NCBI GenBank assembly: GCA_965178125.1
Contig: OZ237738.1
Location: 620,001 to 684,000, forward strand
Source of the DNA: Bilabrum cf. latius
Taxonomy: Eukaryota
Length of the DNA stretch: 64,000 nucleotides
Reading direction: 5' to 3'
A model generated the notes under the pieces. That model worked only from the letters and a program-made list of their open reading frames with translations, was not told the origin of the DNA and ran no database searches. A program made the translations under genes and the position numbers. Positions 11,666 to 64,000 of this stretch are shown here, piece after piece (the first letter of the stretch is position 1; every line of letters starts with the position of its first letter).

Positions 11666-14600
11666 ATGGAGATTGGAGATATACAGTACGCCGAAATCGA
11701 TACAGAAGACGCCCGGGGAGCCGCTGTAGTTGCACCTCAGACCGGCCTGAGCAAGCGCCGCTCCCTCAGGCGACGACGGTCGCGTGCTCGATCCCCGATG
11801 GTGCCAATCGTCATCCCAAGCGCTAGCAAAAAATTAGAATAGAGCAGTTCAGAGCCGTAGGATATTATCCGGTCCGTCCAGCCAGCGGAGGGTGCAGAGG
11901 CACGGTCGAGTTCGAATGGCAACGCGAGCAGCGCTTCCGATGCAGCCGGTGGCCAACTGGGAGATCTTGCGAGCCAATCCCACGTTAATATGATACTTCC
12001 AGAGAGCCCGAGAGAAAACATATCAGCCGAGTGGGGTGGCGAGGTGGTGAGGTAGGATGGCCTGGGCAGTGCCGCGGACGGCCAGGGTGCCACACTGCCA
12101 GCAGACATCGTCGATCTTGAGAGGTAGAGACGAAAGGAAATTGCCGAATTTCAAGCGGTGGTTTAGGCTCGCCTGCCAGGTCACCGGCATTCGCCGGCGC
12201 GTGCGACGAAGCCGGCGGCCCGATCGGCTCGGGGATATGCAGCTCAGTCCGATTTGAGAGCCTTGCGAGCCGGCGGCCGGCAGGTCGCCAGAACGTTTGG
12301 GGCTGCGGAGGAGCTAAGCGCAGCGATGGATGGATTCGGTGGGGCAAGCCGAGCAGCGTCATCCTCGGCGGTGCCCGCCGCTGCAGGCAGAATCCTCGGC
12401 GCACGGCAGGCGAGCAGAGGCACGGGCAGAGGCAGACGAGGAAGAGGCGCTGCGGATCAGCCAGGTAGCCAGATTGCAGGGGCCACCTCTCGATTGCGCT
12501 CCGCCGACGATTTCGACCTGGCGCTAGGCTCTGCTCCAAGTAGCAAGGCAAGGCAGCCAGCGCGGCCGAAAGGGCGGTCGCCCGCAAGGGCCACCAAGCC
12601 TGGATATGATGCTGATGCTGCCACTGGTACTCGTACTACGCACGACTTGAAATTTGATTCTCTAGCAGGAACTGCATTCGAGAGCAACGCTAAGAACGGC
12701 ACGAAAATGGGTGCAACCGGGCGGCTTGATATGGAGGCAGAGGTCCGTGGGCCCTCTGATGGCGGTGCTGACGACTCTGGTACCGATGCTGATGATTATT
12801 TAGGGGCTGGTGGTCGACGCGGTAGCAGCGTTGGGCTGGTAGCTCCTGTTGAAGGGGCGAGAGCATCGCGAAGCCAGCGTGGCGGATCCATCGAGCAACC
12901 TGGTACGGAGGACACTGGCGCCAAGAGCGCTTCCGCATCCGATGGCGAGGTTCGCCTGGACCTGGACTCGCCGTCTCAAGAGGATGAGATGCATGCACTC
13001 AGCCCGGCGTGTCGCCCCGCTGCACGACAGAAAGGCGAACGCACAAACTCGCAGCAAGCCCAGGCCACAGGATTTGACGCCGACTCGACAGAACGCCTGA
13101 TTGACGACCTCTTCCAAGCAGCACCATCCTAGATGCAGGTGGCGGCACAGCCAGCAGGGTTGTCCTCTAGGCATGATACGGCCTCGCCAAAGCTTGCAGA
13201 GGCCCGTGCTGGCCAGCGCAGGAAGCGTGCGCCTGAAGATGGCGGTGACCTGAGCGAGATGGCAGAGTTCTCGGCCGGTGGGGGAAGCAGCCGATCCAAG
13301 AAGCGCAGGCGGCAGTCCAAGCTTGCCCCCGCAGGAGAAACAAGCTCGCGGAAGGCATCGGCCGCGCGGTAGCAAGGTGGGCCCAGCAGTATCCTGGACG
13401 GCGAGTCGAATGCAAGGTCCGGTGGCAACACTGCCTCGCGACGATCGTCGAAGCAGCCGTCGTCCGCTGGGGAGCTGCCGCGCACCTCGATTCTGGAAGG
13501 TGAAGGCGCACCCTCGAAGGCAAGGCCAATCATGTCCATGCAGGCGTTCCTGCAGAAGAGGCACGCGGGCGTGCTTCCTAGCCGAGTGCCAGCCAGGCAG
13601 CAGCAGCCCTCGAAGCAAACTGCCACGCTAGATCACAGAGGCACCAACGCACTGTCAAAGACTCCCACCAAGTCCGCGGCTGCTCGAGCCCGAGGTGCAG
13701 CTGCATCCAGGCGGCTGCCGACCAGGATTGACGCGGCTCTGATGGCTGCCGCCAGTGTGGCGCAAGGATTCTCCGTGAATGCCATCCTGCGAGGCAGCGG
13801 ATCGTCTCTGTCGTCCACGCCGACAAGCGCTACCACTGCCTCGCAGCGGCCCGGTCAGCAACACCAGCCTCCTTCCCGCCATGCAGCTGCTGCCGGCGCG
13901 TAGACTCGCGAAGCCGAGACCCTGCCACCGATGCTCGCTGCACATGCACAGCTGCAGGCACGCATGCACCGCGACCAGTCGCGGGCTGCGGACCACGGAG
14001 GGGGTGCCATCACGACCACCCAGATGCTGCCTGCCACGCTGCGAGCCGCAATCGAGAGGGCCCGCGGGTCGCGTGCTGAGGCATCACAAGGGGCATTCGC
14101 AGCGGGCGGCAAGCTGCCCATTGCCTCCATGAAGACCGGGGCATCCCTCTCGTCACCAACGCAAGCCAGCGCGGCAATCGCGCCAAGCGGAGAGTCGTCC
14201 AATGCTGAAACGAGCGGGGTGCAGCTGGCAGCCCTTGCGGTAGAGCAGGGCTAGGCCAACGACCATTCGAAGTCCAACGGGTACTGGCAGCAGCAGCGCG
14301 GAGAAGCCGGCCAGCACCAGCACCACGTCGCAGTGGGTGGGTCGTCCGTCAGAGGCAACTCCGGGTCGCCTACCCGGAGGCTTGCGCGCGGGAAACAGGC
14401 AAAGGCAGGTCCGCTGGTGGCGATGCTGGCGAGGTGCTGGCGGCAGACAGCCCAGGATGCCGCACTACTGGACCACTACCACATGCAGCACGGCGCGCGC
14501 AAGCACCCGTCTCCCACTACCGGCTTGGCTCCCTCCTTCTCTTCGTCGTCAGCTTCGTCTGCTTCAGGTGCCGCCGGATCGCCTGTCCTAAAGGAGACCC

Positions 14601-15439
14601 GAGCCCCGCAGCATCGACCGTGGGTTGTGCTGGAGGCGATCGATTCGCGGTGCGTCGGGCCTCACGCATGGGTGCGGTGCTTGCTGCGAGCCACGTCAGA
14701 CGACGACGGCAAGCTGAAGCGCTCTAGTGTCGGGGGGCAACATGGGCGCGAAGGAGCCGATCGTAGCGGGGCGGGAGAGGCTGGGGAGGAGGAAGACTTG
14801 CTGCAGAGCATGTTGGATCAGGAAGACGCTACAGGTGGTGGGAGTAAGAGCCCGCTGGGTCTGAGGCTGACAGCCGAAACGCACGACGCGGAGCGATTGC
14901 CCGCAGCGGCAGCAACAGCACCGACGGCAGCGGCCCGCCCAACAGCTCCCACCGAGCCTGCAAGCTCGTGCATGGCACGCGGTCTGACCCCAAAGATCGT
15001 CGGGCTGGCAGCGGGGCAGGAGGTGGTGGCCCTGTTCGGGGCATCGCGCTGGAGCTGGCTGTGCAGCGCGGGGAGGGCGCCTGCCTGGCTCCGAGCAGGT
15101 ACTCGAGGGGAGGATGCTCGCTCCAGGGGATCTGGATTTCAAGCTAAATCGGTGGCGGTGAATGTGAGCGGTGCGATGGATGGCGATGGAGAGGGGAGGT
15201 GGAGGGAGCGGGCTGGGTTCTGCGTGAGGGTGCACGGCCCGTTCTCCGTGCTGACCAAGGGCTCAGAAGAGGGGGGCGGGGGACAGAACTCTCTCAAGCG
15301 AGTGGGCGCTGCCGATCCCGGGGGGGCGGCAGGAGCATCATCTCGGTCCAAGGGAGTCGGTAGGGAGGAGCGGCGCGGGCTGCCGGTCCTACTGTCGACC
15401 GCGATGAGTGTGGCTGTCAGGACGACGGTGTGCCTATGA
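11666..15439 (+). CDS. Hypothetical 1257-aa single-exon protein, mostly low complexity; C-terminus weakly SPIDR-like
   Basis: One frame from ATG 11666 to TGA 15437, interrupted only by 9 TAGs (11840, 11858, 12053, 12125, 12164, 13130, 13370, 13901, 14252). Six ORF-track fragments fall in this frame. Confidence 0.75.
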
Positions 15440-15819: not shown

Positions 15820-18800
15820 ATGGCTCAAAGTTGGCCGAATACGTCGCGATAGGCCGCATAGAGGATCGGCAGGGGCACCCGGCTGCGAAAACTGTGACGT
15901 AATTTTGCGCTCGTCACACTCTTCAGTTGCTGTTGCAGTTGGACTTCTTACCCTTCTACGCAGGCGAGAGATAGGAATGGAGCTTGATTAGGGATCGAAT
16001 GGTATGGACTTGATTCAAGCTCTGGAGCACACTGGGCTCTCGTTGTCCCGTGGCCATGCGACGCTGATATTTAGCTCACCAAGGCGCATCTGCAACATCC
16101 TGTTTGAGTGGTGCTGTAGGAACTGTATCACGCAAAATCCGGTTCCATTATCGTCTGAAATGCTCCAGTATGCCGCCAGAGTGCGTGAACTGGTCACAAA
16201 CTACACCAACGAGAAGTTACGAGCAGCGCTGCAAGCATAGTTGCAGAGCCCACAGCATGCTTCATCCGGACAGAATCGAGACCAACACCCAGAAAGCACC
16301 GAATTCCAAGGCGCTACATTTGCACATGCGCACGAGGCTGCGCGAGCAGTGTCCTTCCCTGCATTACCAGACCCGCCTGTGATGCCAGACCTCTGTGCGA
16401 TGGGTGTGCGTTGCATCTCCTGCGGTGCCCCCGCGAACGTATCTGGCCGCTGGATCACATCCACTAGACGCACAATGCGAAGAGTTAGACGCATGGTCAA
16501 GCCTGGTGCCAGAGTAAGCAGCAGCAGCGCGCCAGTGGCTGGCAGTGGTGCAGCTACCAGCGAAACCGTCGCCGGCAGTACAAAGACCGGCCAGGCGCCC
16601 GATTCACAGCCCATGTCAGACGGTGCTGACAGCGGAACCGGTGCCGCGACAGCCGCAGAGAGCGATGGTAGCACAGCCCCGATGTCCGACGAGGGCATCC
16701 AGGGAGAGCGCTGGAGGGGCGCTGGCAGCAGCAGCGCGGCAGGAAGCAGCGTCGCCGCGCAAGCCTCCAGGGCCGGCTCCGCAAGAGCTGTACGCCCCCT
16801 CGTCTCGGAGCTCCGTGACTTGCTACCGCTGACCCTGCCGCGCACGCTGGATCCCAACGCTGTCGCTCCCCCTGGGCTCGGTACCACAGGCGTACTCGAT
16901 TTCGGCACCGATGCCACGGAGGTCGACCCGTCGAGCAGTCTGGCAAAGGTGGCGAGGCGACAGGCGCTGGCCGTTGCCACGCAGACGATGGTTTCCTCAT
17001 CCGGAAGCGTGGATCGAGCGGATGCTATGGCGCGAGGGGTGGGCAGCTCCTCTACAGCCAACGGGACTGACGGCGGGGCAGCCAGCCGGCGGGGCAGCAG
17101 CGGTGCGAGCGACGTGGGGGACAACGACCGACGCCTGGGCGACGATCGGGATCGAATGCCTGCCGATGCACCTAGTGTGATCGCGAGGGCCTCCTAGAGC
17201 GGTCCAGTGAAGGACCTGGAGTCGTAGGGGGCGGCAAGCGCGCCTCGCAGCGTGGCTGGCTCGGTGAGGTCTTCGAAGGGCTCTGCCAGGTCTGCATCGT
17301 CAGTGTCTGCGGCAGATGATGACGATGATGAGAACGACGAAGACAGTGAAACCGATTTTAATGATAAAAAAGCAGGCGGCGAGGCCGGCAGCGCCAGTGG
17401 TGCCGCTCAAGCGAGGGCCTTGCTGGCTCCAGGGGGGTCGGTGCCTATGGAGGATGGGGAAGACGCCCGACTGAGGAGAGGAGACAGCGACGCGTTTCCA
17501 TCCAGAGCGTCTGAAACGAGCAGGCCTGGGGTCGATCGGCCCGCCAGTCCGGCAGCAGCCACAGCCGGGACGCACGTCAGCGGACCCCGTGATTTGGAGG
17601 ACAGGGACCCTCTGGAGGCGGACGACGAGTCGCTGTGGCACGTGATCGACGAGGGCCTGCCGCGCTGCGACGTGGCAGAGCAGGGCGACTCTTGGATACA
17701 GCGCTGGGCTTCGCGCGGCGGCGCGGGCTCCTGGTTTGATGGCGTGAATGGCGGCAGGAGAAGGGCCTCGGCGGAGCTCGAGCTGGACTCGGCCGGGCTG
17801 GAGGGCGACAAGTCGCAGAACCAGTACGGCCTGCAGGCCATCGTGGAAGCGCCCCCTGCCCCTTTGAGACCCGACCCAGTGGCAGCTCGTGCCATTTCAG
17901 AGATACGATCCAACAATAGGAGGCGCTGGACGGGCAGACACGGGAGGTTCTCCTCGACCTCTGCCGGCTTCCAACCGGTGGTGGCCCTCGGTTACGACAG
18001 CCGCATGCTGCTGCACGACGAGATTCCCAAGAGGAAGCGACCTCTTGTTGATGGCATGCCCGTCCCGCCGATTGCCCCTCACCCAGAGAGGTCTGATCGG
18101 CTGCGGGGCATTGCCGGCCACTTGGCCGCCACTGGGCTGTGGCAGCGGTGCTGGAGGGTGCCCACCCGCTAGGCTCGCAGAGAGGAGTGCGAGCTGGTCC
18201 ACACGTCGTCGCACATGGACCAGGTGGAGAGCCTGCGGGAGGTGGGCGACGCCGGCTCGAGCCTGACTCAGGACACGTTCGCCAGCAAGCACACGCTCAT
18301 GGCTGCGAGGCTGGCATGCGGGACGGTGCTGGCCGCCACGGAGGCCGTCTGCCGAGGCCACGCCGACTCTGGCCTCGCGGTCGTGAGACCGCCGGGTCAC
18401 CACGCCGAGCCGGACGTGGCAATGGGATTCTGTCTTTTGAACAACGCAGCGGTGGCAGCAGCAGTGGCAAAACGGGACTGGGGCGCCCGCCGCGTGCTTC
18501 TGCTAGACTGGGACGTGCACCACGGCAACGGCACGCAGGCCATATTCGACTCTGACCCAGACGTTATGTACGTGTCAGTGCACCGGCACGACGACGGCAA
18601 ATTCTACCCTGGCACCGGGGCTGCACAGGACATTGGAGAGGGCGAAGGTATCGGCAGGACCGTGAACGTGCCTTGGCCCGGGGGTGGCATGGGCGACTTG
18701 GAGTACACGGCTGCGTTCGAGCGGCTCATCATGCCGGTAGCGCGGGAGTTTGCTCCCGACCTTGTGATCGTGTCTGCCGGTTTTGACGCAGCGGAAGGCG

Positions 18801-21406
18801 ACCCCTTGGGTGGCTGCGCGGTGACTCCTGCAGGTTACGCACACATGACCTCGATGCTGATGCAGCTCGCCGGTGGCCGCATCGTGCTTGCTCTCGAAGG
18901 CGGGTACAACGTGCGTTGCATCGCGCGATCCACGGAGGCTTGCCTCCGTGTGCTGCTGGGTGGCTCCCCGCCCCCGCTGCCTTCGCCGGAGCAGGCAAAG
19001 GCGAAGTCTCTCTCAGCCTCAAGGCTTGGGCTGGGCAAGCTTGGCATCCCGCCTGGCCTGGAGGATTCGGCGCACGCCCTGGCCGTCATCCAGCGTGCAA
19101 GAGAGCAAGGACACGACGTGCAACTGCAGAAGGCAAATTCGGACGACGAGGACGACGACGACAATGAGGCAAGCCGAGGGCAACGCCGTGACGTTAAAGC
19201 TCTGCAGGCCGAAGAGCAGGCCGTGAGGGCGGGCGGCTCGCATGGCGACACAGCTGCTGGGTAGATCGAAACCGACCGACACACGTCTTCTGCTGCGGGA
19301 TCGGATGCCATTAGCCGGCCGGCAGAGGGTGCTGAAGCCAGAAGCAATCCTGCCGCAGGGATGATGTCGGGCGCTATTTCGCAACGGGGCAGTGACGATG
19401 AGTACAGCGGGCACAGCGACTCCATGTCTGGCTCCGTGCAGGCATCCGAGCTGGTTGCTCTCGTCCCGGGCGCGGCACAAGCCATTGAAGCCGCCACCCA
19501 GGCGCTCCGGCCTCACTGGCACTGCCTCGGCGCCCTGGTGGCGCAGGGCGAGAGCGTGGCAGCGACAGCGTTCCGGCGAAGCATCAAGCAGCGGCTGCAA
19601 AAGCTGGCGAGCCGGTACTAGTCAGAGCAGCAGCACCGGGGTTCAGCTGTGGGAGGGGGCAAGCCTGTCGCCATTCCGGGCTGGGGGGCTGCTGCCACTG
19701 CCATGAGTGCTTACGTGGGGCAGTAGCCAGGTCTCTTCGGGGCGGGTTCGATGTCTCCAGGCAGGCTGCCCAGCTTCGATTCCGCGCAGCCGCGGAGCGC
19801 GGGGACAACCGGGGGTGCTTCTCTGGAGCAGCCAAGCATCAACTCCGTGGGTGCCGTCGGAGCTCACGACGATCAGCAGGTCGGGCTCGGGGGCCGGTCC
19901 GAGCGGAGGCTCTCTGCAGCTGATTCCATCGGAATGGTGACGCCTGGGGACGGCACGCAGGAACTGCTCCCCTCTAGGAGCAGTCGTGGCGGGTCGGGTG
20001 GGTCGGGTGGCCTGCAGCAAGCGGAACCGTTCGTGCCTGGCCATGCAACCAGCGGAGAGATCCCGCTGGGGACTGTGCCGCACACTAGCCGCCCGAGCAG
20101 CAGCGAGCAGCTGACACCCCGGAGCCCATGGGCAGCTGGCGTGGGAGAATCTCCCACCAATGGCAGGCCGAATGAAGTGCCGGCTTCGGCTGCTGCCGCC
20201 GTGCAGGCGGCCCAGTTGCAGAGTCTCAGTCCAGCCATGCAATTCCACCACGAGCACATGGTGTCGCCATCCTCGGGCGGTCTGCAGCAGCCGGTGATAG
20301 CAGCGGGCCAGAGCCTGACCGGTGTGGCCAACGGAGGTGCAGGAATCGCGGGCGGCGCGCTGGCTGCTGGGCTGCCAAATGGCAGCTCCTCGACTGCTGG
20401 TGGAGCTGGTGGCAGCGCTGGCATGAGCGCGCCTGCTGGCACTGTGGCTGGGCACTGTTCGTCTTCGAATGCATCCGCGGGTGTGCCACAAGGCAGTGCA
20501 CCGATGACCATGGGTCTCGGCTTGAGCCACGGAATGCACAGCGTGCCCATTGGTGGCCTCTTGCATCACCGTATCGGTGGGCCGCAGCGTGGCGGGAAGG
20601 CATACCTCCCGGTAGCACTCCCTGTCCCCAGGCAAGCCATCATGGTGCCCCTCTCGGAGGTGGAGAAGATCATCGACATGGTCCTGGGCGACCCCGACGA
20701 GGTCGGTCCGCTGTCTAGTGCGCTGAGCCAGGGCGGCGCAGATACATCCAGCGAGCTAGAGTCGATGAGACCCGTGCCTGGTGACGGTGACGAGCCTGTC
20801 ACTGGCGATGTCGGCGGGGCGCTCACCCCCACCACGGCGCACGGCAGGGGGTTTGGCTCCTCGAGTGCTGGGGCCATGGGCTCCGTAGATGAGTCTAGAA
20901 GTGACAGCCGCGGGGACGGTGAAGCGGCTGAGCCCGTCGGGGCTGAAGCCACCGATCCTACTGGGGATTCGCAGGCTCGCTCCTCGGCAGGGGCACAGGC
21001 TGGGGAAGGGGCAGGGGCAGAGGCAGGGGAAGGTGGTCCTCCCCACGGCACGCACCAGCTGCAGCACGGTGTTCAGGGCTCTTCGCACTCTGTTGGGAGC
21101 TCTCTGCCGGGGTCCCCTGGCTTGCGGGGGCTGGGCGGCGCTGCCGGCGAGGAGCTTGTCCGGTCTGGCGAGCTGTCTCCAGTGCGGCTGGGCGAGAAGA
21201 GAAGCAGGCCAGTGCCAGGAGGAGACGTTGGCAGGGGCTCTGAACCAGGGAACATCGCGAGGGGCCTTCTCCGGGCTTCCGCGGAGGAGGTTTCTGAACG
21301 AGGTCCTACCGCGGGAGACGGACAGAATTCCACCGGGACGGGTGGCACCATCGAGGCGGGGCCAGGCGCTGGGCAATCCGACAGCAAGCGGCCACGGGTG
21401 GAATGA
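15820..21406 (+). CDS. Class II histone deacetylase with long disordered N- and C-terminal extensions (~1840 aa)
   Basis: Motifs HPERSDRL, RPPGHHAE..AMGFCLLNN, LDWDVHHGNGTQ, SAGFDAAEGDPLGG and LEGGY. One frame 15964-21406 with TAGs only; ends TGA. Putative first exon 15820-15893 plus intron 15894-15963 is less certain (alternative ATG 15977). Confidence 0.9.
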
Positions 21407-21617: not shown

Positions 21618-24600
21618 ATGAATGGCCCCGAAGTCCCTGTTGGCTCCTTACCGCCGCAGTGTAGATTAATAGACTATTTCGCTGTGCTTAGCAGGAAAGC
21701 AAACGGTTAGAAGCCTTGCGTTCTGCTGTAGTTGACTGATCCACGAGCTGCCTGAACCGTTGCAAATGCTCTTCGGTAATTGCGTCCCGCAGATGATGGC
21801 CCAGGGAGGCTGCTGGAACGAATACCGAGATGGGACCATAAAGATGCCGAATTTTCGCCGCAAGCTACATTAGTGAGCAGCTAGTGCCAAACAATGAGTG
21901 CAGACCACCAATGGACTGGTGTATCGCAGATTCCCCTACATTACAACCTAGCCGCAATTTCGCAGTTCTGCTTCCCACCAGTATCCCCTTGCCCTGACGA
22001 ACCGCACTTCTATGCTATTCGCTTGACGGATGGTGAATACAGGCAAGCATACGCGTGCTGCTTAGCATTCACTGATGCAGGCTCGGCTCTCAGAACAGTG
22101 TCTGGGCATGCGAATAAATCTTTTGAAGCCTAGAATAGTGATCTTGCTGACCATTAGAAGATTCAAGCTCCTTCAGTGCTTCCTGCGGCTGAATTCAAGT
22201 CAGGCCTCGATACGAAGGTATTGATGCTGATAAGCCGGCTCCCTCTCTTTTCTGTTTGGGAGACGCTTCTGCGGGCCATCCTGAGGACTTATTCTGGAAG
22301 GTTCGAACTAGATATCATGTCGGCGTACACACCAGCAGGATGGCTCTTGCCTAGCTGGGCGCCACCAGGCGAGGGCGAGTCGCATGGACGCCCCGCTGCC
22401 AGGCCACGAGCGAACGCAGAAACGTCTGCATCGCGCGCTGGGCTGCCTGCTGGCCTTGATCGGATCGAAGAGAGCTCTCAAGATCGTAGCAGGTCCACGG
22501 AAGGCCGCAGTCCCACCGAGTCAGGCACGCCTTCCCTGTCCTCCCGCGGTACCAGCGGCGCCCATGGTGCCAGCAACGGACTCGAACACTCCAAGGGGCG
22601 TGACAGCCCTTCGCAGTTCGCTTCAGAGGGGCTGCAGCCGTTACATTAGCGTAGCAGCGCTGCCTACGATTCCTCCGGGGAGCAGTCCGTCGCGTCATCA
22701 GCAAGCGAGGGGGCGGACAGCAGTGAGTCCGGGCCGCACCACGGGCAGCATGCAGGTGGCAAGGATAGCATGATGGAACAAGTTCCAAGTTTGGTGGAAC
22801 TCGGGGATGAGGCAGCTTAGAGGTTCCACGTGCAGCAAGTCCTGGAAAGTGTGGAGAACGAACGGTCGAGGCGGTTGCGTCGATGGTCGAGGCGGCTTTC
22901 CCAGCTCTCGAATCGAGACGATGACGGCAAGGCTAGTGGTGTGGCGAGAGGCGGGACTGAGGGGGAGCTGACCGAGCGGTTGGCGGGGGATTCAATCGAT
23001 GGTAGCAGTGAAGAAGAGGATCAGGATGGCCTCGGCGTCGCGATTGGTAGTAACGCTGGGTTGAGACCTTCCCCCCCCGGGTCATCGCTTCAGTAGGCGA
23101 GCAGTCCAACTGGCGCCTAGTCCTCGCAGATTGAGCCGCGCCTGTCGACTCGCCGCCGAGAGTCCACCATCGGTCCGCTTGTCAGTCTAGGTGCCGGTCG
23201 AAACCGAGAGCTACCAGGCCTGCTTCATTCTAGGTCACGTGGAAGCATAGACAGCAGGGCGTCCTCTGGTGCCCCGCCTAAACGGATGCTGCGGCGAGCA
23301 GACAGCGGGGCTGGTAGCACTGCTGGTGGTGCCTACACTAGCATTGCATCAAGCGCTTACGGAGGCGACTACGAAGATGAGGACGATATGACTTCTATAG
23401 GCGGTGGTGAGAGCGTGGCTCGACCGGGCAGGAGGCATTCACGAAGGTCTGTAGTACAGTAGTAGCAGCCAGTTCCTGCTGACGGTGTCTTTGCAGAAGA
23501 GGATGATGACATCACGGATAGCATCACGGTAGCAAGCACCACTCGCCCACCAGGAATTCCAGGACCCCCGCCCCGACCGCCCAAGCTGAATGCCATGCGA
23601 GCTTCCAAGGGTTGGAGCCAGAGCTCCAGACTCGTTGGTTCCAGACGGCCGGTGGTGCATGCTGCCGGCAAGGTACCCATCCGTGCGAGGTCGCAAGCTG
23701 ACCTTAAAGCTGCAGCAATTGGTATCAAGCTTAACATTTCTGACGACTAGCTTGCAATACCGTCAGTTGGAAGCAACAGCCGCAGTGGCAGCGGCAGCGG
23801 AGATGCTAGCGGTGACGGGAGCGAAGCTGATCAAACAGGAGTCGATGACACGGCTGAGCTGTCCGACGTCGATGCAGCTAATGGTGCCGATGAAGCCTCA
23901 TCTACCAATTCAAAGCATCGCAACCAAAGCGAGCTGCAGGCCATCATTAGGCGAGATCCTGTCTTATCGCGAATTGCTGCCGAGGAATCGCTGAGCCTCG
24001 TGCCACGCTGCCTTCTCAGACTGAGGCCAGCACCCCCAATCTTGGATGCAATAACGGTGGCTACTGCTGCTGGAGGGCCATTTGATGCCCTTGAGCCTGG
24101 AGATGGATCTGCCATGCCAACGGACCACCGGCTCGCCGACGAGCACCAGGACGCCTCCGGAACTCAGCCCCTGCTGCTCGGGCTTGGCACCCCACCGCAC
24201 CCGCCTGGAATACGACGATCGCGCGTTGGATCCGGCTCTAGCTCTCGCTCTCTGCTGAATGCCAGCAATGCATACGTCAGCAAAGAGGGATCGGTGTACG
24301 ACGCCGGGTAGATAAGTCGCCGCCACAGTGTGAGAGCCAGGACGCAGAGTGTTGCCGCTGAAGAGCTGGAACTGGTTGATCAGTCCAATGAGGCCAACCC
24401 CAAAGCTGTTCGAACCCAGACGGTTCAATCTGATACTGATTTCGCTGAGATGGATGAGGAGACTGCAATGCAGCCCGTGACAAGACGTGCAGCCGCTGGG
24501 TATTCGGGAGCGGGCCCTAGCCGGCTCCTGGTGTCGTTCGCAGGATGCTACTCGGTCGTGCAGTCATTGTTTCGAGATGCGCAGAGCGACCAAGCCGGAA

Positions 24601-27600
24601 TCTCAAGCCAAATCTCCAGGTACGCTGTTGCTGCGCCCATGCGCGGTCCTAGCGGAGCCCCACCTAGGCTTTTGGTGGGAATCAACCGTCTCCTGCGCGG
24701 GTCAGCACCTGCCTGGCTTGCACGGTTTAGTTCTGGTGCAGGGTGTGGCAGCTGCTTGGATTGCGGCATTTCAATCGCAGGACACTCGCAGATCGGTGCG
24801 TTGGGAAGGCGTCGAAAGTCAAGCTAGCCTGATGCTGCAGCCTCGAGTGGCTTGTTGGTGCAGAGGACCGCAGCTGCCCTCCTCGCTGGTCGGGTCGATG
24901 CGGCGACCCAACAGCCACTGGAACACGTACTGATGGCATTGATCTTTGATTTGCCAGCTGCTATCGCCAGCAACAGCTCGATTCAATTCAGACCAGAGGA
25001 CCCGATCGAGGTGGCGCTGCAGGGGGTCAGCGTGAACGTGACCCTGCCCTTGCTCCCGCCGCTCCCCAGGAGCGTGCAGTTCCGAGGACTGCAGTACACG
25101 GGCAGACAGGAAAACAAGGAGCCTGGGGCCGATGTTGAATCCTTGTTCGGATCATCTTCATAGCCGGGGCTGGGAAATGAAGGCCGAAAGGAGGCAGACT
25201 CACCGCAAACGGAGCAGAAGGCAGGGATGCTCGCGGATCTGGCGCTGGAGCAGGAGGGGCGGCGGGTCTCGCCTGGGCTGAACCTCAGCATTCGACTGCC
25301 AACAAATGCCGGGCTGCCATACGTCGATCCGAGCTGCCTGCTTGAGCTCTTTTAGTGCTTGTCACCGGAAGTCGTGTGCGCGTGCCTTGCCGCCATCCTC
25401 ACTGAGCAGCGGACCGTGCTGTTTTCGAAGCACATGTGGAGGCTGACTGCATGCTCTGAAGCGCTCCTTGGCCTGATGTACCCCTTCCAGTGGCCCGATG
25501 CCTTCATGACTAGCATCCCGCCCATGTAGCAGCTGCAAGAGGTGCTCACAGCGCCCTTTCCAGTGTTTGCCGGCGTGCACGAGGACACCATCACGAAGCG
25601 CGAGCAGCTCCGAAAGATTGCTAGGGAAGCTGTCACTGTCCGCCTTGACGCAAACCGAATGTACTTTCCGAAATTGGGGGGAAACGGCAGCGAAGACGAC
25701 AGCAGCAGCGAGGATTCTGACGGTGGCAGGCCAGCAGCTGTCGAGCCTGAAGTGTACGGCGCACGCAAGAAGAGCACCTTTGCTCTCTTCCCTAGGTCTA
25801 TTGTGCACCGCCTATGCATGCGTCTGCGCAAGATACTCCCGCCAGTCCGCTGCGCTCCCCTACAGGGCGAGTGGGAGTGCGAGCACGAGCTTGGTGACAG
25901 CGGGGAGGCACCAAACCCTGTGCAGGACGAAGTTGTGACTGGAGACTCGCTGTCGCAAGAGCTGCTAGACCGTCGGCTTAAGACGGGCACCAGCGCATTT
26001 CAGTGCTGGGCTGAAGAGGTTCGCATGGCCTTTTTGGAATGCATGGTAAGCTTAATGCGAAACGTCGAGCACTTTGCTGCACAGCGAAAAGGTGCAGAAA
26101 CCCCTGGCCCGGACGTATCGAGGCAGGCAGGCATGCCAGTCTCGGCGGAGGAGGAAGGAGGGGCAGAAGCCCTCGGGTCAAACGAAGGTGGCTCCTCCAA
26201 GCACGTTGCTAATGATTCGAGCTCGTCTGCTGCAGGCACCAAGGGAAAGGCAGCCAAGTCGCGGCAGCGAGCATAGAGTAGAGGCAGAATCGAAGTGACC
26301 TTCGAAACGAAGGCATTCGCCAAGTCGGCGGCTTCTCGGGAGCACGCGAAGTTTCTTCGAGAGTTTGCAGACCCGCAGCGGAACACGGTATTTACGTTCT
26401 TTTTGCAGTCTTTTCGAGGATGCACCGAGCACGCCCCTACGCTGTCCCTGACCAAGACAGCAGCCTCCTAGGCGGGCGTGCAGCAGTTCTTTGACTTGCC
26501 ATCTGCCATCAGAGCTGTAGAGACGCTCTCGCGCAAGTATCGTCGCGGCAAGCAAGCAGACATGAAAGGATTTTTGAGCGCATTGGCACGTTCGATTGGC
26601 GTGTCCCAGGCGCGGACTGGTGAGAGTCGGGACAGTCGACGTGCCGACAATTCAGCTCGCGGGACACCATTCAGGGAGCCCCCCGGCAGCCGCCGCCGCA
26701 AGAAGAAGCAGACGCTGAGCTCTGCAGATCGAAACGCCATTTAGTTTGTTCTACTGCTCCGCGCACACAGGATAGCTATGGCAGCGCGAACTGGCTGGAG
26801 TCGCCTGGCTGAGCTTGGGCTGCAATCTGGAGCGGCAGGTGCCAGTGGGTCGATGCCAGCGCATGCTGCTCAACCGCGACTGCGAGGAGTGGCTGGCCGG
26901 TAGAGGCGTCTGACCCTCAGTCTTGTCATTCCTAAGGATACGCCTCCTAAGCAAGCAGTTGCAGGAAATAGCGCAGCGGGTACAACAGCAGCAGGGAGGG
27001 CCAGTGGCCGGACAGCCCCGCCCACTGTTCCCCGTGGCTTGCTCGGGTTTGCTGTCGGCTTTTTTACTGGAAATAGAGCCACTCCTTCGGCAGCATCGGT
27101 TGCGGCGTCGTCCAGTATAGTTTCTGGCACTACGCAGGCAGAGAGGTATGCTGCTCTGAAGAAAGCTCTGTGGTCAGAGCACCTCTGGGCACCGTGCAGC
27201 TCTAGTTTCGTGGGTGGTTTGTTGCAGCTCGCACTCAGAGCTCATTCGCAGTCGCAGTTACCTTCTCCTCCAGGTAAAGGGAAGTCCGGTCCATTTGGCT
27301 AGCCACTAGAGCTCAGACCCATACTGCCTTCGCTGTTCCGCACACCGAACAGAAGTCCGGGTCTGACTCATTCGGTTCCACCATCTGCAACTAGACTGGA
27401 GAATCATCGGAAGTCTGCTCTTCCCGCAACCATATCATCTTCATTGGAGTCGTACGGTTAGGGCTGCTTGCTTCTCGACTATGGTGATGACGAGGCACTG
27501 GCAGACTAGGTTGAGGTGGGGTCACCACTGGCAGGGTTCCAGCCAGCCTCCCGAAGCGAGGCAGAGACGCTCCAGAGATTCTCAGGGAATACGGCTGCTG

Positions 27601-30600
27601 GGTCACCTAGCGCAGCTGTACGCATCTGTCGCGACGCAAGGCCGCGTGCCTTGCGCAACCTGGCAAGAGTTCAGTTGCAGTCGCGCTTCTCACCCGTTCT
27701 TGTGTTTCCACGGTTGGATCCGACCCTGCTGCCCGTTGACAAGCTTGCACTGCAAGACTAGTCGCAGCTGCAGGTACTCCCCATCCCACGACTGCTCCCA
27801 AGCGCTATCCGTGTATCCGAAGGACTTGCCCCGAGGCGCGTCGGGGATCTTGAAGCGAGGAGCAGATCCGCTGCGGTGGGACAGCTGTTCTCACCTCAAA
27901 CGAAGCCTTTGCATTTGCTAGGCTCGCCTTCGTCTGCTATTGATGAAGCCCATGATGCGACTGTGGGATCAGATGCGCACGTCCCCTTTCACCTCATTCG
28001 TTAGGCCGAGGCATGCGTTGCCGACGGTGTTTCTGATGCTCAGGCAACCAAGCGGCTCCTATACGACGTTCTGCATGCGCCGGTCGCCCCGGATGCCAAG
28101 AGCAAGAGCAGCCTATCGCGGCAACGAGGGGGCCTTGCCGGTGGATCGTTTTCATCGTTTTCAATTCCTTCGAGAGGCGCCTTATTGGCCGATGCGAGCA
28201 CTGGCTCCACCGGACTCGCGGCAGTTGACGCTATGAACATGACACGGGTGGCATCAGCTGGTACGCACAGCCCCGTCCCCAGTCGTGACACTCTCTCCAG
28301 TCTGTGCAGGGCTTTAATTCACGCGATTCGCCAAAGAGATGCTGCTGTACAAGAATCCAAGGCCATTATGAGAGACCGCAAGCGAAGGATCTCACACAGA
28401 GCTACGATCTCGCTGGCTGCACGCAAAAGGAACTCTGGGAGGCGGGAGGTATCAGACACAAGTGACTACCAAACGACTGCTAGCACGGAAATTGGAAGCT
28501 CGGCCGTCGTTGCAGCGGCATCTCGTCTTCCAGTTGATTCTACTCCTAAGCAACGCATGCGTCGCGCTCTCCAGCGCCTCGTGGCCTCAGGCGACGTTAA
28601 CCGAGCTCTGGCGCTCGCAAGAACCGCCTCCTCTGCAGGCACCAACTCGCCTGGCGGTGGTGCGCAGTTGCAACGAGATGATGAGCACCATGGGGCTGTG
28701 GATGCTCGATCGACTCCACGAGGTGGCCGCCAGACGGGGATAAGGTCTGAGACTCTTGCCTCGGTGGCAGCCGATGCTGCAAGCGCTGCCAAGCGACGCC
28801 TGCGGAGGATTGCATCGTCACAGAAAAGCGCATTGCAGCTTGCCATCGACACCTCTATCAAGTCAGACGCGCTAGCTGAAATGCTGCAGCATAGTCCAGA
28901 AGGAGATGAGAAGGAAGAAGATAGCTTCCGATTGCCGAGGCGGTCAACGGTGGGCGATGGCGACCGGAACGTGATGCGGAGGCGCGGTCGCAAAGCCAGC
29001 GCGATTACTCCAAGCCAGCTTATGCTTGACAGCAAAGATGGCGGAGGCTAGTCGTTCATTCTAAAAGGGGAAGGTGCGGACAAATAGGCCGTAGCCAGCA
29101 AGCAAGCCCGTGCAAGCGCAGGGGCGGCTCTCGGATCTGTGGACTAGAAACGCCGTCGGCGATTTTCAGCCGGTGGCATCCTTGAGCCGTCTGCTGTCGC
29201 GCAGTACAGCGCATCTCGCCGATTGTCGGCACTTGTCCGACAGGTCGCGAATAGTAGTGGCAAGCCCACGGCGCAGCTGTCTGGATTATCCGAGGATCAC
29301 GCCGGCGCTGGTGCACATAGTCCTTCAGCCCTCCCCATTGCAGATGCCACTAATGTCCATCGCACCATCCGGGCTCTCATTGAGCGGGCAAAGATGCTTG
29401 AAGAGAGGTGCGATGCGTTTGGTTTTGCCTACCGTGACACGCTTGCTGTGCTAGGAGAGGCACGGCAGGAGCTGCTTGGCACGCATACGAAACTCATCAA
29501 CTCAGAATCTGTGGCATCTCTTGCGGTGCGAAAAGAGTTGGAGAGCTCGGACCGTGCGCTGAAGCTGCAGAATGAGTCGGACCAGCTTCGTCGCCGAGTG
29601 AGCATGCTGGAACGGCAAGTGGCTCAGCTGCAGGAGAGTCGCTCTCACTCCGACGAGAGCCTGGTGAAGCTACAAGGTGCAGTTGTGCATGCCATGGCCT
29701 CTCGATTCCGCAGAGACCCGCGCAGCAAGAGTGCGACAGCCGGTGAACTCTCCCGGGATCAGATTGCTGCGATCATGGAAGCAGCCGAATCGGTACGGCA
29801 AAGGGGTTATGATGGCATCGATGTGGCTAGCGAGGCAATCTCTGAGTTTAGGCTTCTCCCCATTGATGAAGTCTAGGCTGACCAGCCCAGCCAAGATGCC
29901 GCTGGACACTCGCTTCGCGCCTCGCACGCCATTCTATCCCCGAGCCCAGGCAGAATAGAAGACCCTCTTGCCCTATCCAAGTCGCCTACGCGGCCCCCAC
30001 GGCAGTCTCCTTTTACACGAACGCACAGCGGCAGCAGCATGGCCCCGCTGCACGCTCAGCTACACGAGGAAATCAGCTCTCGTAAACGAGTCATCGCGCT
30101 AGCCAAGGAGGCTACAGGAAAATGGATCCCAGGCTCTGGTAGACTCGAGTCCGCATCGGCTCGCTCTCGTATTGGAACGGCAATCGGCGCATTGCGTAGC
30201 AGGGTAGAATCGCAGGCTGCGATTGCTCGGGCTAGACTCGTTCAGTTCAATCGAGTTTTCGGGCAGTCCGACTCTGGGGGAGATCGGTCGGGGCAAGCAA
30301 GCCTGCACGCAGCGAGCAAGTCTCGCCATACGAACGTATCGACACGCTCTCGCATGTCTGCTACCAGTGGCCGCAGACTCAAGGCTGCGGTTACAGCTGC
30401 CACTTTATCTGAGAATCCCCTGGTTCTTGATGCCATGAGACGATTCGGTGGTGCGTCGTACGGCCAGTACCCTGCAACCGAGGCCGACGTAGAGTTAGAG
30501 ATGGCTTCTAATGCACGCGGTTCGCAGTGGCTGAAAGCTCAGATAGATGCCATCCAAGGTGTCTCATCCCGTCAGTCAACTTCATCTCGAGAGACCAAGG

Positions 30601-31400
30601 GAGCTAGCTCAGTTTCAGGTGCAGGAGTGGGTGCACGCGGTGTGCGGCTTGCGTGGTCTTCGAGTGAGGCTCTGTCAGCTCTCTGGGACGAAATACTGGT
30701 ACAGATGGAGTGCATACAGAGATGTGTGGCAATCCTCGAGAAGGTTCACGAATCAGGTCGCAAATCAGGTGGTTCATACCCGGATAGTCGAGGCGTAGTT
30801 GCACTGGGACAGCGTGCCAGTCCACCAGCGAGGAGAGGCATGCGGTCGGCAACATCGAGGGAGACGCCGGAGCGAGGCTCGAGCTTGGCTGCAACAACAA
30901 ATCATGCGGCTCCACCAACCGTACCTGACAAGCAGCGCCGCCAGCCCAAGCAGCTTGTCCTTACCAATGGGGAAGCGGTTGCCCCAGGGCGACAAGCAGG
31001 CTAGGCTACCAACGGACAGATTGCGAGCATCGAGCCAGCTCTGCAGCTTGAAGACCTCGCCACGGGCCATTCCATGAGCTAGTGGAATCGAGGGGATGCC
31101 CGTATGGTCCCGCCAGAGTTAGCGAGACGAGGCACGCGAGTACCGAACGACCGTAATGCAAGTAATCTGGTGGTCGGAGGGAATAGGAATGGCTGCGCGA
31201 GGCAAGATGCGTCTCAACCGTTTGGTCGCGGTCCAGCAGGACTAGATGCTGCAGGCAAGACTGCCGGGCACTCGACCGCGCGAGTTGGCTCAAAAAGGGG
31301 TCACAAGAAGACTGAGGGTATGGCAGTGTCGAGCCAAGAAGCAGCCGCTGCCAGAAAGAAGCGGCTGCTGCAGAACCTCAGACGGTCTGGGTCTACCTGA
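21618..31400 (+). CDS. Giant DENN-domain protein (Rab GEF family), ~3200 aa, with C-terminal coiled coil
   Basis: Exons 21618-21705, 21793-21872 and 21966-31400. uDENN: LIDYFAVL...FCFP...LTDGEYRQAYACCL. cDENN: LF*CLSPE...ILTEQRTVLFS...LMYPFQW...APFPVFAGVH. dDENN: EVRMAFLECMVSLM...FLREF. The 9.4-kb last exon has ~29 in-frame TAGs and no TAA/TGA until the terminal TGA. Confidence 0.9.
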
Positions 31401-31432
31401 TTCTGGAAGTGCCAACCGGTTGTACCATGGGT

Positions 31433-34390: not shown

Positions 34391-37300
34391 TTACTAAGGC
34401 TCCCACATTGAGAGAATTCCAAGAGCAGTCAACGTGCACAACACCGGGCGTGTCTGCACCCACTCCACCCCGATCACCGGGTCCACGGGTGCTCGCTGCC
34501 CTGTACCTGCCAAAGCGACCCTTGGATCTAGTCGGGCTATGGCCTCCAGCTTCCTGGTGTCGTACAGCCAGGCGCCATCCGTGGATGCGACCGCAATGTA
34601 CCTCATGCACGGACTGAAGGCGATCGTAGATCTGGATCCTTGTGGTGCATATGAGCCGAGAGGAGCATGCCCCTTGCAGTAACCGACGGGGCGATCCGAA
34701 GAGCTCCGTGCATCCCATAGACGCACCGTTGCATCGCCTCCCGCATGGCTACTTGCAAACACCGAAAATGCTTCGTGTGGGACATCTGCATACGCGCACG
34801 CCCTTGGAGAGGCCAAACACTCCACCGCCGAGCTAGGACCGGATGCAAACGTCCGAATCGTGACGCCGATCCCACTGCTAGATCCGGGGGCACCCCTTGG
34901 GCTACCCATATCAACCACATGAATGATTCCGTCTGAAGACCCGCACGTGAACTTGGTGCATCGCGGCACATTCACTGCGTCCAGTGCAGATATGCTCGGT
35001 GCCATAGAGGGCGGCGGCGATGCATGGCTCGCAGCAGTCTTACTGCGGGTCTCATAGTAGCCAAGCGATGTGCCAGACGAAGCTGGCACCGAGCAGCCCA
35101 TGCACTTCAGTGACACTGCGCCATCAGAAAGATCTTCACCTCTGTGTGACGCATCGAGAACTACGCCCGATGCCGATTGCTTTGTCGCGGCATGTGCCTG
35201 CAACCTGCAGGCGTATACGCAAGGGCCGCGGCTTACCAACGCTATGCGATCCTCCCAGAAAAAGGAGCAACTACCGAAGGACCAGCCATCCGATCGCGAG
35301 GCAGCCACTCGGCGGTGCGAACGATTCCAAGGCGAGAGCGCCTCGGCGGCTGGAACTGGCAGCAACTCCGACGGAATAGACGAAGCCCGCCTCCCGCTAG
35401 ATGGGGGCAATGTGGCAACTACCTGACACAGCGTGTCCTTCCGCCCAGCTGCCATCACCCTGACCCCGGTGTTTGGACCCCAGCTCAGCAGCAGCGGGAC
35501 TTCGCCGGCACCAGACATGCCACTGGTACGCGCAGCAGCCAAGCTTCCACCAGATGCCTGCTTCAGGCGCCGCTAACCAACCTTAAATTTACCGTAACTG
35601 AACGCAATCCCGGTTTCTCCGCTTGCTTTGCTACTCGACAGTGCATGCGTTGATGAGTCAAGTCCAGAAGCCACCGTCAATGACGCTGCACTTAGCCGCT
35701 AGTTTGCGTAGTTACATACACGGACCCGCGATGCAGTTTCAGCGCTAGGTCTTGAGTGGGACGCCTTCAATTCAACTCTGGGTTCATAGACACCAGCAGA
35801 GAATCCAACGGAGGCCGTCCCCCCTTCAGCCGCGCACACAGCGACGTGAAAACTCTCTGCACCTCCCCAGCAAGCCAGCGAAAGGCCGCCCTCACCGCTC
35901 GGGGCTCCACCATACTACGGCCTCCTCTCCGTTCGAGCAGCCGGAGCTAATCCGTTTTGCCGCGGAGCTCGTACTTGCTTCGAATTTTTGATGTTTTCGA
36001 CAGAAGCTCGTAGCTGCTGTGTATAGCTTGCCAGATTGACTGGCAGGTCACACAGTTCCCCATCGCCTGCGTCTTGCGAGCTCGACATGGGATAGCTGAT
36101 GTCACCACCGATCTTGCCGAACGACGCACCTGTGTCGTGTGGATCGTGCGCCCACGCCGATGTCTTGCAACCGGATGTCGATATTGTCCCAGTTTCGCTA
36201 GCACCGCGAGCTATAGAACCTGCTAGTACAGCAGCGAGTCCGCCCACGCCGGGCTCTCTACGGTCAGCCGGAGGTCGACGCGAGCTGGGTGCTGGCTTGG
36301 CTTTCCTGTCGGCGCCGAACATCTTGCGGGGTTTGACAGCACCGTATCCGCTCGATTTTACGGCGCCTTTCAGGCGAAGCTGGCCGGTTCGAGAGCCCCT
36401 GGAGACCTTGCTTCTTGATGGACGTGCAGCGTCCATCAGTGCGCCTGGTTGTTGCCCCGCCGCCCTCCGCCGGGCCTTGGAGGTTCCACGCAGCTTGCAC
36501 AGCACCGACATTGGATCAAGCGAATCAGTGGCGACAAACACCCCTTTGCCATCCCGGTCGGAGGACGCTAGTAGCTCCCACACGCCGGCTAGCTTAGGCT
36601 CGCTGACCGCGGACTATCGCGTGATGGTGCTCGTGCTTGCAGCTGCCCCACTGTCATGGATGGACAACAGAGCTGCAGCCAGGCCCGAGTGAGATACCTT
36701 GGGCTCCTTTTGCTACGATACACTTGGCATGAATGATGGCTGCAATGCTGCTGAAGCGAGCGCCCTGCGTTCCGACCAATCTACGTCACCGGATCCGGCG
36801 CCGCTTCTTGCACCCACAAATGATCTCGTTCCCGGCGCACGCTCCGCTACTTCTGGAGCCCGCCGTGGTGACTCAGGGACCGGAAATTCGGCGGTAGTGT
36901 CCTCAGCTACAGCGCTAGTGGCGTGAAATGGCAAAACGTCTATCGGGCCGGGCGCTGACTCCTCGCCTGATGTAGAGGCCAGTGGACCACTGCCGCCACC
37001 GCTCGGCGGGGAGATACCCCCGGTGTTGGGATCTGTCAGTGACCTTGTCATACCATGCGCATCTCCTCGTTGCATTTCTACGACATCTAATTTTGTACCT
37101 AACTTACACGCAGACACCACGGATGCTAGCGCATGTTCCAGTGGATCCCCAACTCGAAGCAGAAACGAGAGCTTCGTCTCTGATGCTGCATGTACTACTC
37201 GAATTCCATCGAGTTGTATTCCTTTGGTAAACTTGCTACTATCTCTTTGATAGCTGGGTAGCAACTCCGATATGCTGCAAGTGCCAATGCTCTGCAGCGT

Positions 37301-37729
37301 GGCATGCGATCCTAGAACCTCGGCCTCAAACACCATAACCTTACCTCGACTGTCGCATAGCACTAGCAATGAGCGCTCGCCTTGCTAAGAGGTAGCATGA
37401 AAACCAGCTAGGTGTACGCCCTACGCATCTGTTGTGCGTCCCAAAGCCCACTCTCCATCAACTGCGCCAAGCTGTGATTCACTGAGGTCGGCTGCCCCAT
37501 CACGCAGCCACGCAGGAAGTGTGTCATCGGAATTGAGCACTTTGGCGGCATTTAAATCAGGAGTGATCACGTCTCTAATCGTCGATCGCCCTATACCGAC
37601 GTGCACAGGCGGTACAATTGGACAAAGTGATGGAGGCAGCTCAAATTGAAACGACCACGAATTGTCACCATGGCAAACGTTTAGCCCTACTGAACCGGCT
37701 CCACGAAGCACAACAGATGCACGCATCAT
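34391..37729 (-). CDS. WDR27: WD40-repeat protein, WDR27-like (~1112 aa)
   Basis: One frame with 8 TAGs. VKSSGYG...PRKMF motif and C-terminal VRLWDARS...GH...IAFSPCMRYIAVAS...AWLYD resemble WDR27. Ends ...MWEP-TAG-TAA. Confidence 0.7.
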
Positions 37730-56092: not shown

Positions 56093-56093
56093 A

Positions 56094-63600: not shown

Positions 63601-64000
63601 CATCTGGAAAACTTGTTTTGCTGGACAAGCTCTTGCCCAAGCTCAAGGCAGAGGGCAAGAAGGTGCTCATTTTCACCCAGATGGTTCGCGTGCTCGATCT
63701 CCTGCAGGAGTACTGCCACTACCGCAAGTACAACGTGGAGAGGCTTGACGGCAATATCACAGGCAATGCGCGGCAGGCGGCCATCGACCGGTTCCAGACA
63801 CCAGGCAGCGACTCTTTCGTCTTCATCCTAAGTACTCGCGCGGGTGGGGTGGGCGTGACATTGACTGCAGCCGAGATTGTGGTAATCTTCGACAGTGATT
63901 GGAACCCACAGAATGACTCTCAGGCGCAGGCTAGGGCACACCGCATCGGACAGACGAAGGAGGTCAAGGTGTATCGGTTGCTGACCCGTGACACATACGA
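57675..64000 (+). CDS. CHD-family chromatin remodeler (CHD6-9-like): tandem chromodomains plus SNF2 ATPase; truncated by the window end
   Basis: Chromodomains FEYLVKFQGRSYLHCKW and FLVKWMNLPDSYNTWE. ATPase motifs LRSYQVEGLNWL, ILADEMGLGKT, VDEGHRL, LLTGTPLQN, LRKCCNHPYL, LSTRAGG, DSDWNPQND and RAHRIGQ. One frame with 7 TAGs (58002, 58134, 58902, 59538, 59577, 61191, 61914). Confidence 0.95.

Follow-up and report, generated by a model that had tools for sequence, protein, structure and literature searches.

The window studied here, a stretch of 64,000 nucleotides (G000:C4:620001-684000) from an assembly of 48.6 Mb in 111 contigs, belongs to a genome with intron-poor genes and holds ten ORFs with a total of 16,899 codons (Table 1). 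Pfam matches are present in five of them (tripeptidyl-peptidase II, histone deacetylase, DENN, CLU/TPR and CHD) and absent from the other five. Within these ORFs 95 TAG codons occur in frame, alongside 519 CAG and 175 CAA.

Table 1. Genes, introns and codon motif of the window, with in-frame TAG codons
Feature	Position	Strand	Details
ORF without Pfam match	1..3156	-	3 in-frame TAG; runs past the window edge
Tripeptidyl-peptidase II-like ORF, 3' part	7669..11235	+	Pfam match; 2 in-frame TAG; TGA stop
ORF without Pfam match	11666..15439	+	9 in-frame TAG; TGA stop; X5 contigs cover 11466-15171 unchanged
Intron upstream of the histone deacetylase ORF	~15679-15961	+	Spliced contigs
Histone deacetylase ORF	15977..21406	+	8 in-frame TAG, one within the PF00850 match; TGA stop
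Further intron	~21705-21791	+	Spliced contigs
Intron, GT..AG	21873..21965	+	Contigs X5, X7
DENN-domain gene, last exon	21966..31400	+	~3,140 codons, 29 in-frame TAG; PF02141, E 1e-19
CAG TAG TAG CAG	23457..23468	+	In-frame; reads as Gln-Gln-Gln-Gln, within a low-complexity region of the DENN-domain protein
ORF without Pfam match	34391..37729	-	8 in-frame TAG; terminal TAG TAA
ORF without Pfam match	38670..40742	+	2 in-frame TAG; TGA stop
Low-complexity ORF, 2,900 codons	41400..50102	+	15 in-frame TAG; TGA stop
CLU/TPR-repeat ORF	51170..56092	+	Pfam match; 12 in-frame TAG
CHD-type chromodomain/SNF2 helicase ORF	57675..63998	+	7 in-frame TAG; runs past the window edge

The structure of the central part of the window is supported by spliced contigs. 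Over 11450-31440 the X5 contigs contain three GT..AG joints, two of which are also found in X7, and on account of these joints X5 and X7 are taken as RNA, no run being recorded as such. Away from these joints the X5 contigs agree with the DNA letter for letter and without a gap across 11466-15171, 15962-21445 and nearly all of 21966-31440, the last being the DENN exon and its 3' flank; this amounts to 0 differences over ~18.6 of 20 kb, with all covered TAG codons retained and the TAG TAG pair included. The tetracodon at 23457..23468 is covered by X5 record 12 (23350-24742) and by X7 record 19 (23365-23696), both with 0 differences and 0 gaps. An apparent ATG (21894) and a TAG (21882) lie inside the intron preceding the DENN exon, so that neither is part of the coding sequence. 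The DENN-domain gene is closed by the TGA at 31398-31400, and the X9 and X10 contigs, which come from a ~90%-alike relative, end at this same codon (31400). In public protein sets this gene appears as fragments, P0364 and P0367, each ending exactly at a TAG codon.

The motifs in which the preliminary description had seen TAG next to CAG or CAA are all present at their positions and in frame. The 11 plus-strand motif positions, all of which were tested, lie in long ORFs that are open only with TAG readthrough, among them those at 43023, 45006 and 45144 in the low-complexity ORF and the TAGs at 59538, 59577 and 61914 in the CHD helicase ORF, whose helicase domains hold none; on the minus strand, the TAG CAA near 36713 belongs to the reading frame of the 34391-37732 ORF (X340 followed by Q). 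The argument that a poly-Gln context points to the meaning of TAG did not hold up. Gln accounts for 12 of the 187 neighbours of TAG against 7.7 expected, a ratio of 1.56 that is not significant (p=0.086 by both binomial test and within-gene shuffle). Ser surpasses Gln as a neighbour (29 against 20.5 expected, p=0.035), the ratio of Gln neighbours is higher for the Leu codons CTG (1.82) and TTA (1.74) than for TAG, and 19 dynein heavy chains give 30 Gln among 542 neighbours where 23.0 are expected.

The meaning of TAG was instead read from conserved columns. The two TAGs within the DENN domain fall in variable columns (R26, E25, S16, Q16 of 145 homologues) and are uninformative. In the 19 dynein heavy chains, TAG occurs 272 times among the 60,152 codons of the motor region, and TAA and TGA never occur in frame. 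In a tally of these dyneins against one set of 120 outside homologues, with paralogues mixed and, as in all the dynein counts, columns with fewer than 60 homologues left out, TAG stands at Gln in 28 of the 42 columns conserved at 90% or more, at Glu in 7, at Arg and Lys in 2 each and at other residues in 3; the controls at Gln columns are 330/482 for CAG and 32/49 for CAA. Since the 7 Glu columns exceed the 1.7 expected from CAG/CAA of the same genes (Fisher p=0.005), the tally was redone with true orthologues alone, namely the axonemal subfamily of one dynein (L055) and cytoplasmic dynein 2, with 120 outside homologues each and six ORF pieces, two of them from a related species (109 of 115 TAG aligned). 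With the conservation threshold at 90%, 18 of the 19 columns holding TAG are then Gln, one is Glu and none is Tyr; at 70%, Gln takes 22 of 29 (controls at Gln columns: CAG 55/60, CAA 14/17). The log-likelihood is +95 for Gln and -60 for the runner-up, Glu. The columns are thus not mainly Leu, Glu or Tyr, the residues that the preliminary description had set against Gln, and a Gln/Glu ambiguity of UAG was rejected because Glu drops from 7/42 to 1/19. In a decoding of all codons, 61 of the 61 sense codons are standard and TAG, as Gln, is the sole departure.

Two further lines of evidence agree with this assignment. In 20 Ras-family small GTPases (30 loci were examined among 65 matches, and the 10 without a Cys end motif were excluded) the switch-II Gln, the catalytic Gln, is encoded by TAG in 8, CAG in 8 and CAA in 4, and the TAG is aligned with Q of Rab31 and Rab22A (alignments at E 1e-22; a PDB search at E 1e-30 gave 0 matches). 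A metagenome relative (L108/L109), with 89% amino acid and 76% nucleotide identity to L055, also has in-frame TAG, mostly at other sites: the 16 TAG sites of the genome under study are CAG or CAA in the relative at 12, TAG at 1 and His, Cys or Val at 3 together, and the 29 TAG sites of the relative are CAG or CAA in this genome at 20, TAG at 1, Ser at 3, Lys at 2, and Leu, Glu and Thr at 1 each. The genes neighbouring L109 were rejected for this codon comparison, as at 33-36% identity they are too far apart. TAG is a third, minor Gln codon, with ~10-13% of the Gln codons and a larger share in GC3-poor genes: its share falls with GC3 in the dyneins (rho -0.87), and for 28 further ORFs the trend is not clear (rho -0.22, p=0.27).

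Taken together, UAG is very probably a general sense codon for Gln in the nuclear genes genome-wide (probability about 0.96), with UAA and UGA staying as stops. The synonymy of TAG and CAG proposed at the outset is upheld by the orthologue columns, the Ras-family Gln, the codon swaps with the relative and a tRNA with anticodon CUA described below, and not by the neighbour argument.

The gene ends are in keeping with two remaining stops. All 33 recognisable ends are TGA (25) or TAA (8), and none is TAG. They comprise 20 GTPases with a Cys prenylation-type end motif (followed by TGA in 16 and TAA in 4), 12 dyneins ending at the family terminus (TGA 9, TAA 3; L063, with an off-family end, and six dyneins running off the fetched stretch were left out), and the eRF1 gene (TAA). 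In the 10 of 30 Ras-family loci lacking the Cys end motif, no Cys motif followed by TAG was found. A code in which both UAA and UAG specify Gln (NCBI table 6) was rejected, as TAA directly follows the conserved terminus in 8 of 33 genes and is absent in frame from the dyneins.

One eRF1 gene was found (C35, L031), the other PF03463 match being pelota-like. It contains two in-frame TAG codons. The first, at Gln44, closes exon 2 and falls in a column with Q in 116 of 120 homologues; the second is at Leu69 (L 106, Q 4, N 2). Residues follow human numbering (PMC4381064), and exon borders derive from GT-AG and homology. GTS, NIKS, T32, E55 and Y125 are unchanged, and the changes are N30D, S60V, L69Q (the TAG codon), N129S and K130H. 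L69 and N129 have been linked to reading of a third-position G, while N30A is without effect in yeast (PMC4381064). The changes at L69 (Gln) and N129 (Ser) would weaken termination at UAG, and whether they are causal is, from the sequence, an even bet: L69Q also occurs in land-plant eRF1 (P0124, P0125) and 10 of 120 homologues carry N129S, which keeps either change from being proof by itself.

As to the source, the best named dynein match is Cafeteria roenbergensis (66% identity), and in a FastTree phylogeny of this one gene (31 sequences, 1,836 columns, with mixed paralogy at deeper nodes) the genome under study and L109 together form the sister group of the Cafeteria clade (support 1.0). The mitochondrion-like contig C111 carries a UCA (TGA-decoding) tRNA, a type described in bicosoecid mitochondria (PMC6723347, PMC6972860). 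The dynein match, the one-gene tree and this tRNA point to a bicosoecid-like stramenopile related to Cafeteria. The Cafeteria roenbergensis/burkhardae clade (P0004-P0006, L110) is its nearest named relative in the dynein tree, and the mitochondrial TGA-decoding tRNA is a feature in common with bicosoecids. The Cafeteria-like dynein L110 (69% identity) lacks TAG throughout 3,057 aligned codons, which is compatible with a standard nuclear code. With TAG in both the genome and L108/L109 and none in L110, this one gene suggests that the reassignment came before the two recoded species diverged and, most likely, after their line had parted from the Cafeteria clade.

A single tRNA gene with anticodon CUA was found (G000:C23:907607-907679, minus strand), which ranks second among 48 matches with 69.8 bits and has a T run after it; Rfam matches and pattern searches gave no second copy, the tRNA list being a lower bound. 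This tRNA would pair with UAG and not with UAA. A tRNA with anticodon UUA was not found in 46 of the 48 Rfam matches, three pattern searches and 16 candidate stretches, a search in which 63 of 780 candidates were scored and which again gives a lower bound; a possible match at C34:139372 and 15 other pattern matches are not tRNAs by ARAGORN. The ARAGORN label tRNA-Pyl for the CUA gene derives from the anticodon, and a pyrrolysine system was rejected because UAG occupies ordinary Gln columns genome-wide. The search for synthetases yielded one gene of GlnRS type (C33:559564 region) and one of GluRS type, told apart by their motifs.

Over its whole length the tRNA(CUA) is identical to tRNA-Tyr(GUA) at 48 of 70 positions and to tRNA-Gln(CUG), tRNA-Gln(UUG) and tRNA-Glu(CUC) at 42 of 70 each, 48/70 being within the background range (maximum 0.76). 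Over the acceptor stem and the anticodon stem, two stems picked after inspection, it matches tRNA-Tyr at 20 of 24 positions, with both differences compensatory, against a maximum of 16/24 among 290 different-isotype pairs. tRNA-Phe is included in the stem comparison and missing from the whole-tRNA one; tRNA-His and tRNA-Glu(UUC) were not found among the recovered tRNAs and are thus absent from both. Features of the tRNA(CUA) are C1-G72, G2-C71, G10, U35, A37, G73 and a D stem with the same sequence as in tRNA-Gln(UUG), with the proviso for G73 that ARAGORN can alternatively fold an 8-pair acceptor stem with discriminator A. From the eukaryotic Tyr determinants, which include A73, C1-G72, G34 and U35 (PMC9976931), it keeps C1-G72 and U35 and has G73 and C34 instead of the other two; from the bacterial Gln determinants, which include G73, G2-C71, G10, U35 and A37 (PMC9976931), it has all five, and lacks U1-A72, G3-C70, G36 and U38 of the bacterial set. 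For eukaryotic Gln determinants no data are listed in that 2023 review (PMC9976931). A copy of tRNA-Tyr(GUA) probably became the tRNA(CUA) through G34C, losing Tyr identity by the change of A73 to G73, and with the Gln-type G73 and G2-C71 and the D stem of tRNA-Gln(UUG) it would be charged by the one GlnRS found. Since no Tyr signal is seen at TAG columns, a Tyr-derived suppressor would have to have become a Gln acceptor; judged on tRNA features, such an origin, with charging by GlnRS, is moderately probable.

The competing origin, in which UAG is Gln and a single change of anticodon turned a tRNA-Gln or tRNA-Glu into the tRNA(CUA), with chance or gene conversion behind the Tyr likeness, is less probable and still carries real weight. 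It draws on the D stem shared with tRNA-Gln(UUG), on G73 in both and on a D region alike at 15 of 18 positions, and the two Gln tRNAs of the genome match each other at just 9 of 24 stem positions, so that a lost or fast-evolving Gln parent is conceivable. Its difficulty lies in the stems, where the tRNA(CUA) agrees with tRNA-Gln(CUG) at 12/24 and with tRNA-Glu at 9/24, far from the 20/24 with tRNA-Tyr and from the 21/24 of a same-isotype Lys pair, and in C1-G72, confined to Tyr and CUA among 21 tRNAs compared. The bases after position 72 (G-ATTG in CUA, ATTG in Tyr) lean the same way, a likeness of four letters that is weak and was rejected as evidence of origin. The closeness to tRNA-Gln(CUG) expected of the route predicted elsewhere (PMC5304391) is not seen in these whole-tRNA and stem figures. 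The earlier remark that TAG is one C>T transition from CAG fits the codon; its decoder looks nearer to tRNA-Tyr than to either tRNA-Gln.

Other explanations bear on the reading of UAG itself. Decoding of UAG as Glu, as Tyr or as either of them mixed with Gln is very improbable: the Glu excess of the paralogue-wide tally, the C1-G72 and Tyr-like stems of the tRNA and its likeness to tRNA-Glu(CUC) in the D region (15/17) and loop flanks (4/4) are outweighed by the orthologue columns (Q 18, E 1, Y 0) and by the comparison with the relative, where one of 45 compared sites pairs TAG with a Glu codon and none pairs it with a Tyr codon. Site 764 of L055, mostly Glu in homologues, is CAG in the relative, which shows that the lineage truly has Gln there. 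A dual UAG, Gln within genes and stop near the 3' end of some mRNAs as in Condylostoma or Blastocrithidia, is unlikely. The 34391-37729 ORF, the sole one whose end (TAG TAA) could use TAG as a stop, would allow rare dual use, and the retained T32, E55, Y125 and NIKS of eRF1 and the single tRNA(CUA) gene are in line with it; against it stand the 0 of 33 recognisable ends at TAG, a dynein (L058) that reads through TAG ~20 codons before its stop, and the absence of an excess near 3' ends (6 TAG in the last 30 codons against 4.7 expected, and 0 in the last five against 0.8, in a small, GC-rich-leaning set of 28 ORFs from which the TAG TAA ORF was left out). An artefact without recoding, with the TAGs due to misassembly, pseudogenes, very small introns or editing of U to C, is scarcely credible and is ruled out as far as contigs can show. 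A second 18S gene in the assembly (C95) is merely 77-83% alike, so the assembly may not be pure, and contigs drop rare variants, so minority editing could escape; yet the spliced X5 contigs are unedited throughout their ~18.6 kb, the dynein codons hold TAG and neither TAA nor TGA, the independent metagenome relative uses TAG at other sites, and a Rab exon with TAG sits on C23 at 10 kb from the tRNA(CUA).

With UAG as Gln, this Cafeteria-related, bicosoecid-like stramenopile and one or more species related to it have, on this evidence, a code of the NCBI table 15 type. An earlier nuclear reassignment in stramenopiles was not found in the literature searched, whose supplementary code tables might hold one; no such case appears in the available text of PMC11412368, PMC10120064, PMC12153298, PMC9656049, PMC13768787, PMC12152300, PMC10553269 and bioRxiv 10.64898/2026.06.25.734631. 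The finding is a known code type in a lineage without a report found, with a tRNA whose origin is probably unexpected. The fuller proposal, of a first stramenopile nuclear reassignment by way of a tRNA-Tyr amber suppressor switched to Gln identity, with the code locked by the UAGs of eRF1, is given slightly less than an even chance. Should it be true, the route (G73, G2-C71 and a new D stem) is not described for natural codes in the literature examined, would run counter to the single-step derivation from tRNA-Gln(CUG) that has been assumed and would give natural access to the identity rules of eukaryotic GlnRS, and the reassignment may have passed through a stage in which UAG was Tyr or ambiguous. 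The two UAGs in the eRF1 mRNA, one at the stop-reading residue 69, would make eRF1 synthesis dependent on readthrough and so lock the code. Codes splitting UAG from UAA are rare, and outside ciliates the decoding tRNA has so far been just predicted (PMC5304391); here tRNA, eRF1 and GlnRS are found together in one long-contig genome. A recoded relative and a near outgroup without in-frame TAG make the order of events testable, and as public protein sets cut the genes of the clade at TAG, its proteome and metagenome signal is under-annotated.

Among known systems, Gln-inserting amber suppressors of Escherichia coli have been obtained from tRNA-Trp, fMet, Ser, Asn and Lys with G73, and as in the tRNA(CUA) a CUA anticodon with U35, combined with G73 or an altered acceptor stem, confers Gln identity (PMC9976931). 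Those suppressors are laboratory mutants charged by a bacterial GlnRS, whereas the tRNA(CUA) is a natural eukaryotic gene known from its sequence. A G73 mutant of the tyrosine suppressor supF is also said to insert Gln. The suppressor tRNAs treated in the available text of PMC10553269 resemble the isotype inserted. Among natural codes, the rhizarian exLh likewise splits UAG from UAA and has an eRF1 changed at L69 (to Ala), but reads UAG as Leu (PMC5304391). The fornicate Iotanema spirale, like the present genome, reads UAG alone as Gln and keeps UAA as a stop; it belongs to another supergroup and its eRF1 carries T32G, while here T32 is intact and L69 and N129 are changed, and it has no genome, its tRNA(CUA) being merely predicted to derive from tRNA-Gln(CUG) (PMC5304391). 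Under NCBI table 6 (Tetrahymena, hexamitins, ulvophytes, Streblomastix, Amoeboaphelidium) UAG is also Gln via a CUA tRNA (PMC11687900), unlike the present case, in which UAA is a stop and a UUA-anticodon tRNA was not found. The same code type occurs in the ciliates Hartmannula sinica, Trochilia petrani and Protocruzia tuzeti, which use table 15 (UAG as Gln, UAA and UGA as stops) and, in the available text, show no sign of dual use; in them UAG makes up 18-32% of the Gln codons and UAA is the main stop (PMC11687900), whereas the present genome is GC-rich, gives UAG the smaller share of ~10-13% and has UGA as its main stop (25/33).

Among Ras-family GTPase genes of Bilabrum cf. latius (loci L112–L141), read with UAG as glutamine and with UAA and UGA as stops, the conserved switch-II glutamine is encoded by TAG in 8 of 20 genes (40%), as against 33 of the 162 glutamine codons (20%) across all of these frames, and several of the switch-II TAGs stand directly 3' of an intron acceptor. 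Two public protein records identical to the DENN gene of the window (P0364 and P0367) terminate exactly at TAG codons, which shows that gene calling was made without a code in which UAG is sense. The eRF1 gene (L031) itself contains two in-frame TAGs, at residue 69 and at one exon end, and it is possible that the eRF1 level is under feedback from their readthrough.

Within the window, a minus-strand ORF is closed by TAG TAA, where the TAG may be either the final glutamine or one half of a tandem stop. The TPR ORF is cut mid-repeat by a TGA, and the GC skew is reversed over 1.5 kb adjoining this end; an intron or an insertion is perhaps the cause of the mid-repeat end beside the reversed-skew stretch.

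Positions of features in the window and on contigs (C numbers) of the assembly
Feature	Position
eRF1 gene (L031)	C35:455550-457423
Terminal TAG TAA, minus strand	window 34391-34396
Last part of TPR ORF	window 55001-56092
TGA of TPR ORF	window 56090-56092
Reversed GC skew	window 56014-57531
Second 18S gene (L106)	C95:6099-7900
tRNA-like repeat, examples	C6:2445, C9:4362, C11:1340304, C23:7854, C25:7343
Dispersed repeat, examples	C2:1623409, C3:50357, C4:552233

Elsewhere in the assembly, many contigs carry close to their ends a tRNA-like sequence, about 17 in all and nearly identical to one another, in which A and B boxes are present and the spacer is longer; these make up a putative subtelomeric tRNA or SINE-like repeat. 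A dispersed repeat sharing one 29-base AT-rich word, found at about 28 places on many contigs, is likely a mobile element. A second eukaryotic 18S gene, 77–83% identical to the main rDNA array on C12 (L107), probably belongs to another organism in the assembly.

The axonemal dynein heavy chain gene (L055) and its two downstream neighbours (L142, L143) keep their order in a recoded metagenome relative (L109), whose counterparts of the neighbours are only 33–36% identical. Several tRNA-Met(CAU) genes (L022, L035, L039, L047–L049) closely resemble tRNA-Pro(UGG) (50/68 in one pair), one of them 250 bases from a tRNA-Pro(UGG) gene, and may perhaps represent another anticodon-shift recruitment. A34-type genes are present for Ala, Thr and Pro, and the nuclear tRNA-Ile genes L008 and L044 carry the anticodon GAU, which is unusual in eukaryotes.
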